The notes below the pieces were generated by a model that saw nothing but the letters and a program-made list of their open reading frames with translations, was not told the DNA's origin and did no database searches. This document shows, piece by piece, positions 3,546-40,055 of a DNA stretch of 44,899 nucleotides (positions are counted from its first letter, which is position 1; every line of letters begins with the position of its first letter). The position numbers and the translations under genes are program-made. This DNA comes from Escherichia phage SSL-2009a, in sequence record NC_012223.2, one strand, 5' to 3'.

Positions 3546-4632
3546 TCAATATATGGCGGATCGAATGATTCGCCGTCACATCTTCACCCAGCGCCTGAGC
3601 AATGACCAGGCGCGAAGGGTGCTGTCCATGTGGGAGAAGTTCCGGCCCACATTACTGGGAAAGCTGACCGAGTTGCTTGATGGCAAATCGTCAATGAATA
3701 ACAGGGCACTTTCCACCCTGCTAACGCAAATCGACAAGACCGTTAAATCAGAATTGCGCACCGAGTTTAAGGCGTTGGCTGAAAGCCTTCAGGAGTTCGC
3801 CGACACGGAGGCTGATTATCTCACCGACACATTAACGGCAGCGATCCGGCCGGTGGTCGCCGTACCTGCGATCGAGGTGGTGGGCGTGGTGACAGGTGCG
3901 CAGATCGCAGCGACGGCAATGAAAAACCCGTTTCAGGGCAATACCCTGATGCAATGGCCCGATTCACTTTCAGAATGGACCAGGACGCAGATCGGCAATC
4001 AGGTGCGCGCGGGATTCATCCAGGGTAAGCCGACTATGGAAATTTTAGCGGACGTGAGGCGCGCGCTCGGCGGTCGTAGTGCGCAAGCTATCTCAAGCGT
4101 TGTTAAGTCCGCAGTCAACCACTATGCGGCGACCGCCCGCGAACTAATGGTAAAAGCAAATGACGATATTCTCGAAGGGCGCCAGTGGTTATCTACATTG
4201 GACACGCATACTTCTCCCATGTGCCAGCTACGCGATCGCCTGTTTTATCCAGTTGATGTTACTCCCGACACCAAAGGAAAGCGCGGCGGGAAAGTGGTGG
4301 CTGGATCACAATATGGCGCTGGTCCGGGCAAGCTGCATTATTGCTGCCGGTCTACGGAGACGTGGAAGGTTAAAGGCATGGAAGATTGGCCCAGTGGTAA
4401 GCGTCCGGCACTGAAGGCTGACGCTGGTCGATTGCTGAGTGAGCAGGTCGACGCGCAGACTGATTTCTTCTCATGGGTGCAGCGCCAGCCGCGCCATATC
4501 CTGGAAGAATTATACGGAGTGCAACGCGCCGACCAGATTATGCGCGGCGTGAAAGTGCCGAAGATGTTCACCGATTCAGGCGAACTAATGACTATTGCGC
4601 AGCTTAAAAACCGGGGGTTATGGCGTGATTAA
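3529..4632 (+). CDS. head morphogenesis protein (Mu F-like / SPP1 gp7-like minor head protein)
   Basis: 367 aa ORF overlapping the portal stop; position after portal; size and composition typical of F-like proteins. Confidence 0.6.
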   Translation: MAKTINQYMADRMIRRHIFTQRLSNDQARRVLSMWEKFRPTLLGKLTELLDGKSSMNNRALSTLLTQIDKTVKSELRTEFKALAESLQEFADTEADYLTDTLTAAIRPVVAVPAIEVVGVVTGAQIAATAMKNPFQGNTLMQWPDSLSEWTRTQIGNQVRAGFIQGKPTMEILADVRRALGGRSAQAISSVVKSAVNHYAATARELMVKANDDILEGRQWLSTLDTHTSPMCQLRDRLFYPVDVTPDTKGKRGGKVVAGSQYGAGPGKLHYCCRSTETWKVKGMEDWPSGKRPALKADAGRLLSEQVDAQTDFFSWVQRQPRHILEELYGVQRADQIMRGVKVPKMFTDSGELMTIAQLKNRGLWRD

Positions 4633-4954
4633 GTATGCGGCTATTGGACTGGTTATAGGTCTGGCGGTAGGATTCTGGCTTGGAGACTCCTATCGCGCTG
4701 GCGTAGTGGCTGAGGCGGCGCAAGAAGCGCAAGCCGAAGCCCAACGGCAGCAAACTAAAGTAATTGAGCGCTCCGTGCAGGCAGAACAAGCCCGCGACGT
4801 GGAATACCGGACTATCACAAAAGAGGTTGTAAAATATGTTACGCGCCCTAACCGCCCTGATTGTAGTTTTGACGCTGAGCGCGTGCGGATCAAGCAGCGT
4901 GCCGTTGATGCCGCTAACGGAGTCGGCACTGCGACCGCCGTGCAAGTTCGATAA
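4595..4954 (+). CDS. i-spanin (Rz-like), start uncertain (TTG 4595 or more likely GTG 4625)
   Basis: N-terminal TM segment YAAIGLVIGLAVGFWLG followed by charged coiled-coil-like periplasmic region; GTG 4625 preceded by GGGGG SD; contains the o-spanin ORF in the +1 frame. Confidence 0.6.
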   Translation: MRSLKTGGYGVIKYAAIGLVIGLAVGFWLGDSYRAGVVAEAAQEAQAEAQRQQTKVIERSVQAEQARDVEYRTITKEVVKYVTRPNRPDCSFDAERVRIKQRAVDAANGVGTATAVQVR

Positions 4955-5066
4955 CCCGTCTGCAGACCCCGACGAAGATTTGATGATTGACGTTAAAAAT
5001 ATGGAATGCGGGGCGAAGCTGAGGGCGCAGGTGTTGGAGTTGCAGCAAATAATTAAGGGGCCGTAA
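4836..5066 (+). CDS. o-spanin (Rz1-like outer membrane lipoprotein)
   Basis: 76 aa; signal peptide with lipobox LSAC-G, proline-rich mature part; SD AGAGG 9 nt before ATG 4836; overlaps the 3' part of the i-spanin gene in another frame (overlapped Rz/Rz1 architecture). Confidence 0.6.
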   Translation: MLRALTALIVVLTLSACGSSSVPLMPLTESALRPPCKFDNPSADPDEDLMIDVKNMECGAKLRAQVLELQQIIKGP

Positions 5067-5081
5067 TGGCCCCTTTTCGTT
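5057..5081 (+). terminator. rho-independent terminator (GGGGCC-gtaat-GGCCCC + TTTT)
   Basis: Perfect 6-bp GC stem, 5-nt loop, T-run; sits at the end of the o-spanin gene and at the convergent end of minus-strand gene 5080-5844. Confidence 0.6.
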
Positions 5082-5844
5082 AGCGCGGAATACCGCAAAT
5101 CTCGTTGAGAGTTTTCACATCCAGCGCCACCGCCGTGGATTTTTGCTTGTCCGGGTATGGTATGAATTGCTCAACTTCAGGCCATGCCTTAATCAGCTTC
5201 TTGTCAGTATTGTGTAGGTCCAGCACACCGGTAACGGTGAGTTTGAACGCGTCATACTTCGCACGCAACTCGCGACGTGCCTTGTCGTTGCGGTCCAGGC
5301 GCTTACAGAAGTCATGGTCCGCCGGGTAGTCTACGCGACCGCGTGGGAGATATATCGGCAGCGCTTTCCCTTCCTCGTCCACTTCGCACACTGACGCGAG
5401 CATAACTGTCTCGAACCCCGGAACGATATCGCCGAGATCAGGCGAGAGCTTATTCATATATTTCTCTTCCCAGTATCCGCGATGTACGCGGTATTGGCGA
5501 CCGTCACCGCTCAAGGACAAGGTGCGAACATTGCCGCCTGCGTTGATTTCAAAGGTGGCGTCATAGACGCTGCCGATACCCTTCGGGCGGTCGGAGTTAT
5601 AACTATACGTCGCCTTATTGGTGTATACGCTGACGCCGTACATCTGCGACTGGTCATCGCGGATTAACAGGATATGCTCGCGTAGCGCGGCGAATGTGCG
5701 AATGCCGTCCGGCATACAGTCCAGCGTGATTGCGTACGCCAGATCGCGTGAGTCCATCATGATTTGTTTGGCTTCGGTTGCGATTTCGTGGTCGCGCAGG
5801 ATGTTAGCCAGGATCTGATTTTTAATATCTTTCGTCAGTCTCAT
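5080..5844 (-). CDS. hypothetical protein (antisense accessory gene inside head module)
   Basis: 254 aa ORF, strong SD GAGGA 7 nt before ATG (5844); opposite strand to flanking structural genes; no motif recognised. Confidence 0.6.
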   Translation of the reverse strand: MRLTKDIKNQILANILRDHEIATEAKQIMMDSRDLAYAITLDCMPDGIRTFAALREHILLIRDDQSQMYGVSVYTNKATYSYNSDRPKGIGSVYDATFEINAGGNVRTLSLSGDGRQYRVHRGYWEEKYMNKLSPDLGDIVPGFETVMLASVCEVDEEGKALPIYLPRGRVDYPADHDFCKRLDRNDKARRELRAKYDAFKLTVTGVLDLHNTDKKLIKAWPEVEQFIPYPDKQKSTAVALDVKTLNEICGIPR

Positions 5845-5883
5845 TTTTGTGTCCTCATTATTGGGGCTTTCGCCCCGATTGGT

Positions 5884-6198
5884 TTAGTTAAATTTGATGT
5901 TGCCGCTGGTTGAGGTTAAGCGAGCACATACAGCTTCAACGGCATCGACGCACATGAAATCGTTAAAGGCTTCGACCAGGGCGTTTATGAAAGATGCCGG
6001 AACCAGGCCGCAAGCCGGATTATCGAATGTCGCGGAGTTGATCGCCGCTTTTGCCGCTTCAGAAGCATTCATGCTCTGGCACAGATTCAGCGCTTCCGCG
6101 TTACGCATTGCGTGAAAGGTAAAGGTATTCGCTACAGTAGCTTTATTGAAACGGGCCATTGCGGCGTCTACTGGAGTTGCTACGGTCATGTTAGTCAT
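5884..6198 (-). CDS. hypothetical protein (antisense accessory gene, first gene of two-gene unit)
   Basis: 104 aa from ATG at 6198 with SD AAGGA 7 nt upstream (six-frame ORF extends to 6249); cysteine-containing, alanine-rich; no motif recognised. Confidence 0.5.
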   Translation of the reverse strand: MTNMTVATPVDAAMARFNKATVANTFTFHAMRNAEALNLCQSMNASEAAKAAINSATFDNPACGLVPASFINALVEAFNDFMCVDAVEAVCARLTSTSGNIKFN

Positions 6199-6226
6199 TT
6201 TGTTTTCCTTCATATCTATGTTGGTG

Positions 6227-6250
6227 TGCAACCAATATAGCGCAACCAAT
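6227..6250 (-). promoter_or_regulatory. paired ATTGGTTGC half-sites (minus-strand orientation) upstream of gene 5884-6198
   Basis: tgcaaccaat (6227-6236) and gcaaccaat (6242-6250) on + strand; TATATT between them on the minus strand; member of the recurrent dyad motif family. Confidence 0.45.
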
Positions 6251-6282
6251 TCCAGCAGCGCAAGCGAATTTTGCGATTATTT

Positions 6283-6295
6283 TTATCACTGATAA
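6283..6295. promoter_or_regulatory. 13-bp palindrome TTATCA-C-TGATAA in divergent control region
   Basis: Perfect inverted 6-bp arms seen directly; lies between divergent genes 5884-6198 (-) and scaffold (+). Confidence 0.3.
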
Positions 6296-6352
6296 TATTA
6301 AGGCGTGAAGTCAAGCGGGTGGCCCGCTTTGCCACAATCCCAGGGGGATAGC

Positions 6353-7054
6353 ATGAAACTTACTAAAGCAGAATATGACGCGTTGCCAGAAGGCATGAAG
6401 GCTTTATTTGTTGCCGATGGTGATGGGTATAAATCCACGTTCATGACCGCCGAAGAAGTACAGGCGGAGATCAAGGGTCTGAAAGACAACAACGCGAAGC
6501 TGGTGAGCGAGAAGAAAGCAGAAGCCGAACGTCGCGCCGAAGCCGAGCGCCTTGCGAAAGAGAAAGAGGAAGCCGCCGCGCGCAAAAATGGCGACCTCGA
6601 AGCGATTGATAAATCCTGGAAGGATAAGTTCGCAAAACATGAAGCGGACACATCGGGGAAAATCGAAGCCTACCGCAAGCAGATCCACGACTTAACCATC
6701 GGCAGCGCTGCCAAAGATTTGGCCTCGAAGCTGTTCGGTAAGAATGCCGGCATCATGCAACGCCACGTTATGGACCGCCTCACGCTGGAAGACGGCGAGG
6801 ACGGCAGCTTGAAGGTGCGGGTACTGAAGGACGGCAAACCCTCCGCGCTGACTATGGAAGAACTAGAAAAAGAGTTCCGTAGTAACGCCGATTTTGCATC
6901 CGTCCTGGCTGGCACGCCAGCCGGTGGTGCTCCGAGCAAACCGACGCAGGTCGTCGAAGATGTGAAGTCGAAAATCACTATGGGACACAGCTTCGGTATC
7001 ACTGACTTGACGAAACAGGCCGGGGATATCATTGCTAAAATGGGCGACGAGTAA
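6353..7054 (+). CDS. scaffolding protein (putative)
   Basis: 233 aa from ATG 6353 (SD AGGGGGA); highly charged, predicted coiled coil (AEAERRAEAERLAKEKEEAAARK); immediately upstream of major capsid gene. Confidence 0.55.
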   Translation: MKLTKAEYDALPEGMKALFVADGDGYKSTFMTAEEVQAEIKGLKDNNAKLVSEKKAEAERRAEAERLAKEKEEAAARKNGDLEAIDKSWKDKFAKHEADTSGKIEAYRKQIHDLTIGSAAKDLASKLFGKNAGIMQRHVMDRLTLEDGEDGSLKVRVLKDGKPSALTMEELEKEFRSNADFASVLAGTPAGGAPSKPTQVVEDVKSKITMGHSFGITDLTKQAGDIIAKMGDE

Positions 7055-11506: not shown

Positions 11507-11820
11507 TTGAGGCGGCGCGACGCTTTTATGGCCCGCCGCCACCCTCCGAAGATTTAGCCGCGAGTTTATGGGGCGCGGCCCCTGAAGATGTTTGCCCACC
11601 AGTTGCGCTATGGCCCGACAACGCTAAGGTAGTCGCCGTCTTCACGGATTGCTCCACGCAATGGCGCACCGGATTCGGCGGCGCATACGGCATCGACTAC
11701 GGCGTACTGGAATGGCTTTTTAAGATGCACGGCATCGAAAACGCGCAACGTGCGTTTAAAGATATCAAGCTAATGGAACGAGTTGCGCTGGATGAAATGG
11801 CGCGGCAGAACCACGCATAA
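11144..11820 (+). CDS. tail assembly chaperone frameshift product (gpG-T-like, via -1 frameshift at 11497-11503)
   Basis: The -1 frame is open from the slippery site A_AAA_AAC to TAA 11818-11820 (about 105 extra codons, translated by hand with no stops); canonical position between major tail and tape measure genes. Confidence 0.6.
11497..11503 (+). other. programmed -1 ribosomal frameshift slippery heptamer A_AAA_AAC
   Basis: X_XXY_YYZ heptamer in the zero frame of the gpG-like gene, two codons before its stop. Confidence 0.6.
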
Positions 11821-12145
11821 CGGAGCGGGACAGGCGGGACGTCCCGTTTTGTCCCGCCACCACTAAACCGCATATATACTCACTTTCATTGCATAAATTA
11901 AAAGCGGGACAGGTGCGCTGTCCCGATCTGTCCCACCCCCAAAATGTGAATATCTATTCGATTTTCGTGCATAAAACAAACGGGACAAAAAGCGGGACAG
12001 AATTGGGCGGGACAAAGCGGGACAGCACCCCTGTCCCCGCCAGTGCTGCCGCGGGTTTTAGCCGATCGGGACAGGCGGGACAAAGCCAAGTCTTTCAGAC
12101 TAGACGGGGGTCAATGGCCCCCCTCGTCTGAGACTGAATAAGGTT
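11821..12145. repeat. iteron/palindrome-rich element A (GCGGGACA units, GGGACAG-N5-CTGTCCC palindromes, terminal GC hairpin)
   Basis: At least 9 direct and 5 inverted copies of GCGGGACA-like units; about 150 bp (11978-12137) nearly identical to 39700-39860; hairpin 12101-12130. Confidence 0.7.
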
Positions 12146-22047: not shown

Positions 22048-22063
22048 AGCCCCTTCCGGGGCT
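22048..22063. terminator. hairpin between convergent genes (AGCCCC-ttcc-GGGGCT)
   Basis: Perfect 6-bp stem between the end of 21375-22046 (+) and the stop of the lipoprotein gene (-); T-runs are weak on both sides. Confidence 0.4.
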
Positions 22064-22281
22064 TATTCGCAGGTGGTGCTTTTGAAGTGGTCGACCGACA
22101 CATACTGGAAGTTGAACGGGTAGCCCGCCCGCAACATTTTATGCCCGCTAAAATCGGCAACACCGAACACCGGGACCGAGTATTCCATGCCGCTATTAAC
22201 ATATGTCGCGTCGCAGACTTTAGTCGGCATGTTGGCACAACCCGACAAAAGAACCGCACAAATCATAATTAAAGTTTTCAT
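22063..22281 (-). CDS. lipoprotein, candidate receptor-blocking superinfection-exclusion protein (Cor/Llp-like by context)
   Basis: 72 aa from ATG 22281 (SD AGGGGA); signal peptide with lipobox LLSGC; antisense gene directly upstream of the tail fiber gene. Confidence 0.55.
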   Translation of the reverse strand: MKTLIMICAVLLSGCANMPTKVCDATYVNSGMEYSVPVFGVADFSGHKMLRAGYPFNFQYVSVDHFKSTTCE

Positions 22282-22312: not shown

Positions 22313-22345
22313 GTATTACACCGCTCGACCAGGATTGCAACCAAT
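22313..22345 (-). promoter_or_regulatory. candidate sigma70-type promoter for the lipoprotein gene (extended -35 ATTGGTTGCAAT, -10 TAATAC)
   Basis: On the minus strand: ATTGG-TTGCAA, 16 nt spacer, TAATAC; TTGCAA at 22335-22340, -10 at 22313-22318. Confidence 0.45.
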
Positions 22346-40014: not shown

Positions 40015-40055
40015 ATTGGTTGCATTCGTGCCAGCACCCTGCTAGATTGGTTGCA
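40015..40055 (+). promoter_or_regulatory. candidate promoter/operator (ATTGGTTGCAT as -35, TAGATT -10, second ATTGGTTGCA over -10/+1)
   Basis: TTGCAT 40020-40025, 17 nt, TAGATT 40043-40048; second motif copy 40046-40055; SD GAGGA 40065-40069; ATG 40077. Confidence 0.5.

Follow-up and report, generated by a model that had tools for sequence, protein, structure and literature searches.

The gene nmad5 of the Dhillonviruses, HK578-like siphophages of Escherichia coli, is known from work on evasion of the host defence Tmn. In the phages PhiSMA8 (coding sequence 7, CDS7) and PhiSMS22 (CDS6), Tmn-escape mutants had one common nmad5 substitution, K216E in SMA8, numbered K296E in SMS22; reversion of the mutation brought Tmn sensitivity back and its introduction resulted in escape (Yamashita et al., 2025; PMC11846954). 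In the same study nmad5 resisted cloning in E. coli, indicating apparent toxicity, and an nmad5 deletion phage was viable and still Tmn-sensitive (PMC11846954). According to a 2026 preprint, Tmn becomes active when a phage protein, RIIB of phage T2, binds it directly, and a single substitution in RIIB left binding to Tmn intact and removed activation (PMC13001434). Here we describe the nmad5 locus of Escherichia phage SSL-2009a (NC_012223.2), based on the whole stretch of 44,899 nucleotides, hereafter the window, in which nmad5 and a small gene preceding it form a minus-strand pair between the spanin and scaffold genes (Table 1).

The 44.9-kb window is a complete or near-complete Dhillonvirus genome; its region 4500–6700 was 94–96% identical to vB_Eco_Lzu_P3, SD276, PC2, YD-2008.s and many others, with 157 records matching. 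The core of the finding is already known, the locus being the published Dhillonvirus nmad5 locus. The gene has the same position by the scaffold gene, its product has 254 amino acids, as the equal K216 numbering implies for SMA8, and is 87% identical to the SM_S22 protein; SM_A8 carries the small gene too, and nothing separates the window copy from the published nmad5. New are the evidence against an enzymatic role, the make-up of the unit as an anchor gene plus a 363-bp mobile cassette, the anatomy of its promoter with a genome-wide motif, TTGGTTGC, a correction of the SM_S22 gene model and, more broadly, the recurrence of an antisense slot that is itself conserved and holds different cargo. 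The explanation that we favour, with modest confidence for the whole of it, is that the unit is a non-structural accessory operon expressed early or in the middle period, in which Nmad5 would be a non-catalytic binding or adaptor protein, K216E would turn it into a dominant blocker and the small gene would have arrived on a mobile cassette.

Family, conservation and predicted structure of Nmad5

An earlier note, made from the letters of the sequence, had found neither protein of the pair to belong to a recognisable family. Both are in fact members of PHROG families, and the 254-residue protein matched Pfam PF18757 (Nmad5, nucleotide modification associated domain 5) with E = 6.7e-62 (209.6 bits, cut-off 27) over its full length, residues 1–253 aligning to model positions 1–206 of 206; the match to phrog_1965 had E = 2.4e-62. 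An exhaustive HMMER search gave 88 cluster representatives of Nmad5, all of about 180–250 amino acids. In an alignment of 72 sequences only L217, W221 and N247 were invariant and G104, P222 and L246 near-invariant, and the length of the middle part was highly variable. The family motifs, R-L-T-x-x-I-R/K...N at the N-terminus and T-x-x-K-L-x-x-x-W-P-E...L-N-x-x-x-G-L-P at the C-terminus, are all present in the window protein, which has K216 within T-D-K-K-L-I-K-A-W-P-E. Position 216 is occupied by K, R or Q in 65 of the 72 sequences.

The AlphaFold 2 (AF2) model of Nmad5 (predicted local distance difference test, pLDDT, 90; predicted template modelling score, pTM, 0.82) has a stalk in the form of a long helical hairpin, a beta insert that is variable and a conserved patch made up of the N-terminal helix and the C-terminal motif. 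Conserved basic and polar residues of the patch are R2, T4, R/K8, N14, T213, K216, E223 and N247, and the K216E escape position thus falls within it. No solved structural relative and no similarity to any enzyme were found for the model, which in a viral structure library matched only Nmad5-type or unnamed phage proteins and no known virion protein. The overall predicted fold is common to other Nmad5 family members; the beta insert of the window protein, with about 110 residues (approximately 65–175), is much longer than in most of them. A sliding-clamp-binding peptide at the C-terminal L-N-x-x-x-G-L-P was considered and dropped, because in the model this motif lies in a folded helix (pLDDT approximately 80–87) packing around the invariant L, W and N.

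Because no conserved catalytic-type residues were seen across the 72 family members, no solved structural relative was found and no base-modification genes adjoin nmad5, whose neighbours are the spanin, small and scaffold genes, Nmad5 looks like a binding protein and not like the DNA modification enzyme of its name; we find no support for the latter designation as used previously (PMC11846954). No hydroxymethylase, kinase or aGPT-Pplase genes are annotated in two close relatives read whole (YD-2008.s and JLBYU60), and the two methyltransferases of the phage, Dam-like and C5, are located about 20 kb from nmad5. Divergence of Nmad5 is not faster than that of its neighbours, the spanins and scaffold varying equally or more.

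Comparison with relatives also bears on the published gene model of SM_S22 (L010, PP627283.1), in which nmad5 is annotated at 1261–2265 with 334 amino acids. The conserved start, preceded by GAGGA, is at position 1501 of that record. Upstream of it, the additional 80 codons run across the divergent promoters and, on the opposite strand, about 90 nt of the start of the scaffold gene, and the 80-residue N-terminal extension is not conserved in LM40P1 or the window. We regard the extension as an over-called ORF (open reading frame), and it explains the numbering K296 versus K216 (PMC11846954). In vB_EcoD_Opt212 (L012, 1474–2267), Nmad5 is annotated as two CDS and two pieces are needed in tblastn, reflecting a frameshift or a sequencing error; the split would fit the gene being dispensable.

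Distribution and genomic context of nmad5

The Dhillonvirus set, comprising about 153 records, was defined by capsid protein identity of at least 95%. Using tblastn, Nmad5 was detected at 60% identity or more in 148 phage records and at full length in 144. Nmad5 is hence a genus-core gene, found in about 148 of the 153 Dhillonvirus records at the same position, and not variable cargo. The slot extends beyond the genus. In three metagenomic relatives (L004, L007 and L008), the N-terminal half of the capsid protein is 87–91% identical and Nmad5 only 37–44%, and in all three nmad5 is antisense and adjoins the scaffold gene; in L007 and L008 it lies between scaffold and the spanin and head-morphogenesis genes. 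Its companions differ among them, being either a 170-residue protein with matches to PHROG families whose annotation is RusA-like resolvase or polymerase processivity factor, or a 105-residue protein without assignment together with a Phage_VG64 protein. The 105-residue gene of L007, which occupies the same slot as the small gene, proved unrelated to it on comparison.

More distant homologs of nmad5 have other surroundings. Lambdoid phage mEp235 carries one in its pL operon between N/Nun and cIII, the place where lambda carries ral and sieB, and a relative with a Dhillonvirus-type replication module has one in an early operon upstream of genes for a DUF2800 nuclease, SSB and PolA. The homolog of PTXU04 directly follows a DNA methyltransferase gene, and one metagenomic phage has its homolog beside NADAR, YAcAr and HD genes. 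Yuavirus (M6-like Pseudomonas phages) encodes a protein of the same family, 37–40% identical in the C-terminal third, within a thymidine-hypermodification cluster that includes dU hydroxymethylase, kinase and DNA polymerase, unlike nmad5 of the window, which stands alone and antisense in the head module. No nmad5 homologs were found among virion genes outside this siphophage group. The common theme of these sites appears to be early expression with DNA-metabolism, modification or counter-defence genes.

Some of these contexts could also point to Nmad5 being a DNA modification enzyme, or an essential cofactor of one, with Tmn sensing DNA modified through it. The family is reportedly named for its association with base-modification clusters (a naming said to go back to Iyer and colleagues in 2013), and both the Yuavirus cluster and the PTXU04 arrangement agree with such a role, as does the presence of Dam-like and C5 methyltransferases in Dhillonvirus. 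Besides the missing catalytic residues, enzyme-like fold and adjoining modification genes already described, this explanation is at odds with the mEp235 homolog, beside which no base-modification genes were seen; beyond that neighbourhood, lambdoid phages with nmad5 homologs are not known to have any. It also does not fit with the deletion phage remaining Tmn-sensitive (PMC11846954) or with the reported activation of Tmn by a protein and not by DNA (PMC13001434). We therefore consider an enzymatic role unlikely and retain the binding or adaptor role as the better explanation.

The small gene and its cassette

The protein of 104 amino acids encoded by the small gene belongs to phrog_24635 and has invariant H29, C63, C83 and C91 and the motifs FDNPACGLVP and FMCVD. 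A profile search widened the family to only 16 clusters, all unnamed. No match to a known family was obtained in Pfam, PADLOC and NCBIfam scans, the Pfam hit Mis12 (E = 0.16) being noise; with PADLOC and NCBIfam, neither protein of the unit had a meaningful hit. The AF2 model was unreliable (pLDDT 50).

DNA alignment with SM_S22, Opt212 and LM40P1, which do not have the small gene, revealed how it is placed. In these three phages the leader ...TATATTGGTTGCACACCAAC (...CACCAAC) is followed by 3 nt and then by GAGGACAC...ATG of nmad5. In the window, 363 bp are inserted at the exact junction of leader and GAGGACAC, with flanks identical to those of the three phages. The inserted segment has its own ribosome-binding site (RBS) and a trailing GC hairpin but no promoter of its own, and sits behind the resident nmad5 promoter. 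By tblastn the small gene was found in 70 records, about 59 of them Dhillonvirus (approximately 59 of 153), so that about 60% of the genus is without it. Phages that are unrelated and have no Nmad5 carry homologs of the protein, with 56–73% identity, in at least six further contexts; small-gene homologs occur in Pantoea Dibbivirus and in Ackermannviridae phages, and one is located in an ERF/SSB/primase module adjoining an Imm_superinfect gene. A GC hairpin was found 3' of the small-gene homolog in all three unrelated phage contexts that were checked.

The 363-bp segment is the only true insert at this locus, and it is a mobile accessory cassette. The earlier note had described the whole unit as an insert of a kind typical of accessory cargo. 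This holds for the small gene, which comes and goes with its cassette, and fails for nmad5 and its promoter, which are fixed in about 148 of the 153 Dhillonvirus records and in distant relatives. Since the small gene is found in a minority of the Nmad5 phages and has homologs in phages without Nmad5, the two genes are not an obligate pair, Nmad5 being the resident anchor and the small gene the mobile cassette. A role of the small Cys3-His protein in host interaction or counter-defence would be a guess based on its distribution.

Two published proteins were considered as counterparts of the small gene product and rejected. The gene published as anti-Tmn, ORF35, belongs to SM_S22, where it is distinct from nmad5 (CDS6) and where the small gene is missing. 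Ksap1, the Dhillonvirus trigger of KpAvs2, has 74 amino acids and its gene lies elsewhere, between methyltransferase and phosphatase genes.

Two occurrences of the homologs in other phages are of separate interest. A 47-kb phage contig (L018, 344–5309) has a homolog with 73% identity together with genes for a PurZ-like adenylosuccinate synthetase, an HD/YfbR-like hydrolase, a ligase and a D12 methyltransferase, and this phage may have 2-aminoadenine DNA. Another siphophage (L019, 4269–6109) has, between its tape-measure and minor tail genes, an antisense island of five genes that begins with the homolog, at the promoter-proximal place that the small gene has in the window.

The arrangement of the two genes, adjacent, co-oriented, 39 nt apart and behind one promoter, would also be expected if the small protein tuned or neutralised a toxic Nmad5 as a modulator or antitoxin, and the nmad5 gene that resisted cloning came from SM_S22, a phage without the small gene (PMC11846954). 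Such a functional pair is nevertheless quite improbable, given that Nmad5 is present and the small gene missing in about 60% of Dhillonvirus records, that the small gene has its at least six further contexts without Nmad5 and that an unrelated gene fills the same slot in L007.

The anchor-and-cassette arrangement resembles phage morons and the cor-like gene of the window (described below) in being antisense within the virion block, variable among relatives, followed by a hairpin and dispensable. It is unlike morons in that the small-gene cassette brings no promoter and that Nmad5 is genus-core.

Layout and selection

Plus-strand genes of the window run in the order small terminase, large terminase, portal, head-morphogenesis protein, i-spanin and o-spanin and, after the minus-strand pair, scaffold, major capsid protein and tail genes. 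All large genes flanking the pair are on the plus strand, in agreement with the earlier note, in which both genes had been described as antisense to the structural genes around them. The motif pair and palindrome of the control region, the intergenic GC hairpin and the hairpin common with the spanin gene, also listed there, are likewise present. The minus-strand ORFs are 5080–5844, beginning with ATG, and 5884–6249, for which the ATG at 6198, preceded by AAGGA, is the best start. In pairwise comparisons among Dhillonvirus genomes, the ratio of nonsynonymous to synonymous substitution rates (dN/dS) was 0.10–0.18 for nmad5, 0.03–0.09 for the small gene and 0–0.12 for the capsid gene; purifying selection acts on both minus-strand genes. 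GC content gave no mark of a foreign origin of the unit.

The lysis cassette is split in this phage. The spanin genes (4595–5066, o-spanin embedded in i-spanin) are in the head module, about 37 kb from holin and endolysin (approximately 42.3–43.3 kb).

Table 1. Features of the nmad5 unit and its control region in the window (positions of the whole stretch; strand, + or −)
Feature	Position	Strand	Basis
Terminator-type hairpin AAGGGGCC-5 nt-GGCCCCTT between convergent o-spanin and nmad5	5055–5075	.	Fold
nmad5, 254 amino acids, PF18757/phrog_1965; K216 codon 5197–5199 (AAG)	5080–5844	−	Pfam, PHROG, AF2, dN/dS
RBS GAGGA of nmad5, 7 nt before ATG	5852–5856	−	Sequence; same in 4 of 4 aligned genomes including relatives without the small gene
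Inserted 363-bp cassette: small ORF, own RBS, trailing GC hairpin	5857–6219	−	DNA alignment, clean indel edges
GNRA-tetraloop hairpin GGGGC-GAAA-GCCCC at 3' end of small gene	5863–5876	−	Fold
Small gene, 104 amino acids, phrog_24635; alternative ATG at 6213 giving 109 amino acids	5884–6198	−	ORF, PHROG, alignment, dN/dS
RBS AAGGA of small gene, 7 nt before ATG 6198	6206–6210	−	Sequence
Two direct ATTGGTTGC copies	6228–6236 and 6242–6250	−	One in promoter spacer, other overlapping −10 and start region
Putative sigma-70 promoter: −35 TTGCGC (6258–6263), 18-nt spacer, −10 TATATT (6234–6239)	6234–6263	−	Conservation
Palindrome CGCAA-N7-TTGCG	6259–6275	.	Arms probably the first five bases of back-to-back divergent −35 elements
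Putative divergent scaffold-capsid promoter TTGCGA-16-TAATAT, outside the unit, common control region	6271–6298	+	Predicted
Palindrome	6277–6301	.	Sequence

Control region and the TTGGTTGC motif

A putative sigma-70-type promoter of the antisense unit was assigned from a weaker match to consensus combined with conservation. Equivalents of it are TTGCAA-17-TATATT in SM_S22, TTGCAA-17-TATAGT in L004 and TTGCAA-17-TAGTAT in L007, and the divergent scaffold promoter has the equivalent TTGTAT-16-TACTAT in L004. In SM_S22, L004 and L007 alike, the spacer contains a copy of TTGGTTGC or of a close variant, and a second copy overlaps the −10 and start region; the promoter layout is kept in relatives whose proteins are only 37–44% identical.

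The motif is strongly enriched in the window. There are 14 exact copies of ATTGGTTGC against 0.34 expected and 21 copies of TTGGTTGC against 1.4 expected, with 18 copies of the latter in YD-2008.s. Sites of TTGGTTGC(A) are at 6228/6242, 22337, 25186/25197, 27096/27113, 30042/30054, 33861/33877, 36796, 39609/39644, 39925, 40015/40046, 40565 and 43334/43357. Most copies of TTGGTTGC are paired, intergenic and in the replication and early half of the genome, mostly outside structural genes, and the motif often supplies a −35-like TTGCAn 17 nt before TAnAnT. The leader TTGGTTGCACACCAAC, downstream of the motif pair of the unit, recurs exactly at 40047. From this pattern TTGGTTGC looks like a motif of early or middle promoters or operators used across the phage genome, and its sites together with the recurrent leader would tie regulation of the unit to non-structural genes.

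Only one further antisense gene is present in the virion block, at 22063–22281 on the minus strand in the tail module; it encodes a cor-like exclusion lipoprotein (MKTLIMICAVLLSGC...) and has TTGGTTGC just upstream (22337–22345). With this arrangement it repeats the plan of the nmad5 unit as a second antisense accessory gene. Repeats of another kind were noted. The interval 11818–12081, between the tail chaperone region and the tape-measure gene, is non-coding and contains several diverged unit copies with GCGGGACAG...CTGTCCC inverted repeats, and the 8-mer GCGGGACA occurs in 18 copies in the window.

The cor-like gene with its upstream TTGGTTGC might suggest that the nmad5 unit is defence cargo as well, serving superinfection exclusion or abortive infection in favour of the resident phage, an idea to which the small-gene homolog next to Imm_superinfect and the cloning resistance of nmad5, read as toxicity (PMC11846954), would lend themselves. 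Neither protein matched a PADLOC defence model, however, and family searches gave no membrane or lipoprotein call, nor is there an obvious hydrophobic leader (no dedicated prediction of signal peptides or transmembrane segments was run). In addition, the phage appears strictly lytic, no integrase or repressor being annotated in YD-2008.s and JLBYU60, and the only known phenotype is evasion of a host defence. A defence function of the unit is accordingly very unlikely. That both proteins are head-assembly or virion components, as the site of the pair amid the head genes and the retention of Nmad5 in nearly all relatives might suggest, is an explanation with next to no probability in view of the opposite strand and separate promoter, the deletability of nmad5 (PMC11846954), its homologs in early and replication regions of other phages, the small gene being missing from about 60% of the genus and the lack of any structural-protein match by Pfam, PHROG or viral structure library. 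The earlier note had named conserved virion or assembly components at this position as the outcome contrary to its view; conservation at the position was found for Nmad5, a virion or assembly role was not.

Hairpins of the unit

The stop codon of o-spanin (5064–5066) is overlapped by the hairpin that separates the convergent o-spanin and nmad5 genes, and this hairpin ends 4 nt before the stop of nmad5. Its folding energy was −15.9 kcal/mol on the minus strand and −15.4 kcal/mol (centroid) on the plus strand, and the sequence after it is UUUUCGUU on the plus strand but no more than AAUUAUUU on the minus strand, with a U-tract that is good on the plus strand only. The GNRA hairpin at the end of the small gene (−11.5 kcal/mol, z = −2.9 against shuffles) has no U-tract after it on the sense strand, and transcription should therefore run on into nmad5. 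It is probably an RNA-stabilising or processing element allowing read-through. A further hairpin, AAGCGGG-TGG-CCCGCTT (6313–6329), closely precedes the RBS within the scaffold 5' leader and is largely conserved in SM_S22, LM40P1, Opt212 and L004.

Proposed function of the unit

The earlier note had seen in the pair a self-contained, non-structural accessory transcription unit. This agrees with the deletability of nmad5 and its effect on the outcome of Tmn defence (PMC11846954), and with the early, replication and counter-defence sites of its homologs. We propose that the promoter, back-to-back with that of the scaffold gene and overlaid by two TTGGTTGC copies, would drive a minus-strand transcript through the small gene, past the GNRA hairpin and through nmad5 to the hairpin common with the spanin operon. 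Because most other copies of TTGGTTGC are in the replication and early half of the genome, the unit may be expressed with early or middle genes and not with the late virion genes. The cassette, consisting of ORF, RBS and hairpin, would have landed between promoter and nmad5 and would use the nmad5 promoter.

As the fixed anchor, Nmad5 would use its conserved basic and polar patch as working surface and act on phage or host DNA-metabolism machinery, which could explain the resistance to cloning. It may further engage Tmn, or a complex sensed by Tmn. Since deletion of nmad5 does not give escape, Nmad5 would not be the only trigger of Tmn; if it were one of several triggers, a plain loss-of-function mutation should not give escape either. 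K216E is for this reason best read as a gain of function under either trigger model, and the mutant protein may be a non-productive, dominant blocker of Tmn activation, as opposed to removal of a trigger.

RIIB of T2 provides a likeness, in that Tmn defence is lost in both cases through one point change in a phage protein that is early and non-structural (PMC13001434), and the RIIB variant that binds without activating behaves as we propose for Nmad5 K216E. The two systems differ in that RIIB nonsense mutations give Tmn escape and nmad5 deletion does not (PMC11846954). The viral structure search returned only Nmad5-type proteins and hence gave no sign that RIIB and Nmad5 are related, a direct comparison of the two not having been made.

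Several points weigh against this explanation. The non-catalytic role is argued from missing features, with which an unusual enzyme or an enzyme cofactor would be compatible, and the base-modification association for which the family is reportedly named is real in Yuavirus. Direct contact of Nmad5 with Tmn is a proposal drawn by analogy, and the Tmn variants differ between the two studies (PMC11846954; PMC13001434). The published deletion result carries the caveat that the annotated SM_S22 ORF spans promoter and scaffold start. In the window the −35 element is weak (TTGCGC with an 18-nt spacer), and a simple sigma-70 consensus scan found no promoter at its threshold. TTGGTTGC could also be part of a strong-promoter consensus and not an operator, and it allows nothing firm on timing.

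A bolder form of the proposal is doubtful. It would make Nmad5 a widespread phage adaptor whose Lys-Leu...Trp-Pro-Glu patch is read by the arms of Tmn, with K216E as a dominant decoy; separately, the cassette would encode a new mobile Cys3-His counter-defence or host-takeover protein that repeatedly lands promoter-proximal in antisense islands inside virion modules.

Significance

Dhillonviruses are common among the phages of E. coli and are therapy candidates; only two engineered routes of Tmn evasion are known, and one of them is nmad5. The correction of the SM_S22 gene model matters for the design of nmad5 deletions because the annotated ORF overlaps the scaffold start and both promoters. 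Through the clean edges of the cassette, natural isogenic pairs that differ in the small gene are available, in which its function could be sought. In other respects the locus is an ordinary case of accessory genes lying inside a virion module. Should Nmad5 be a binding protein and not a DNA-modifying enzyme, a model of protein recognition would take the place of the published idea that modified DNA is sensed by Tmn.

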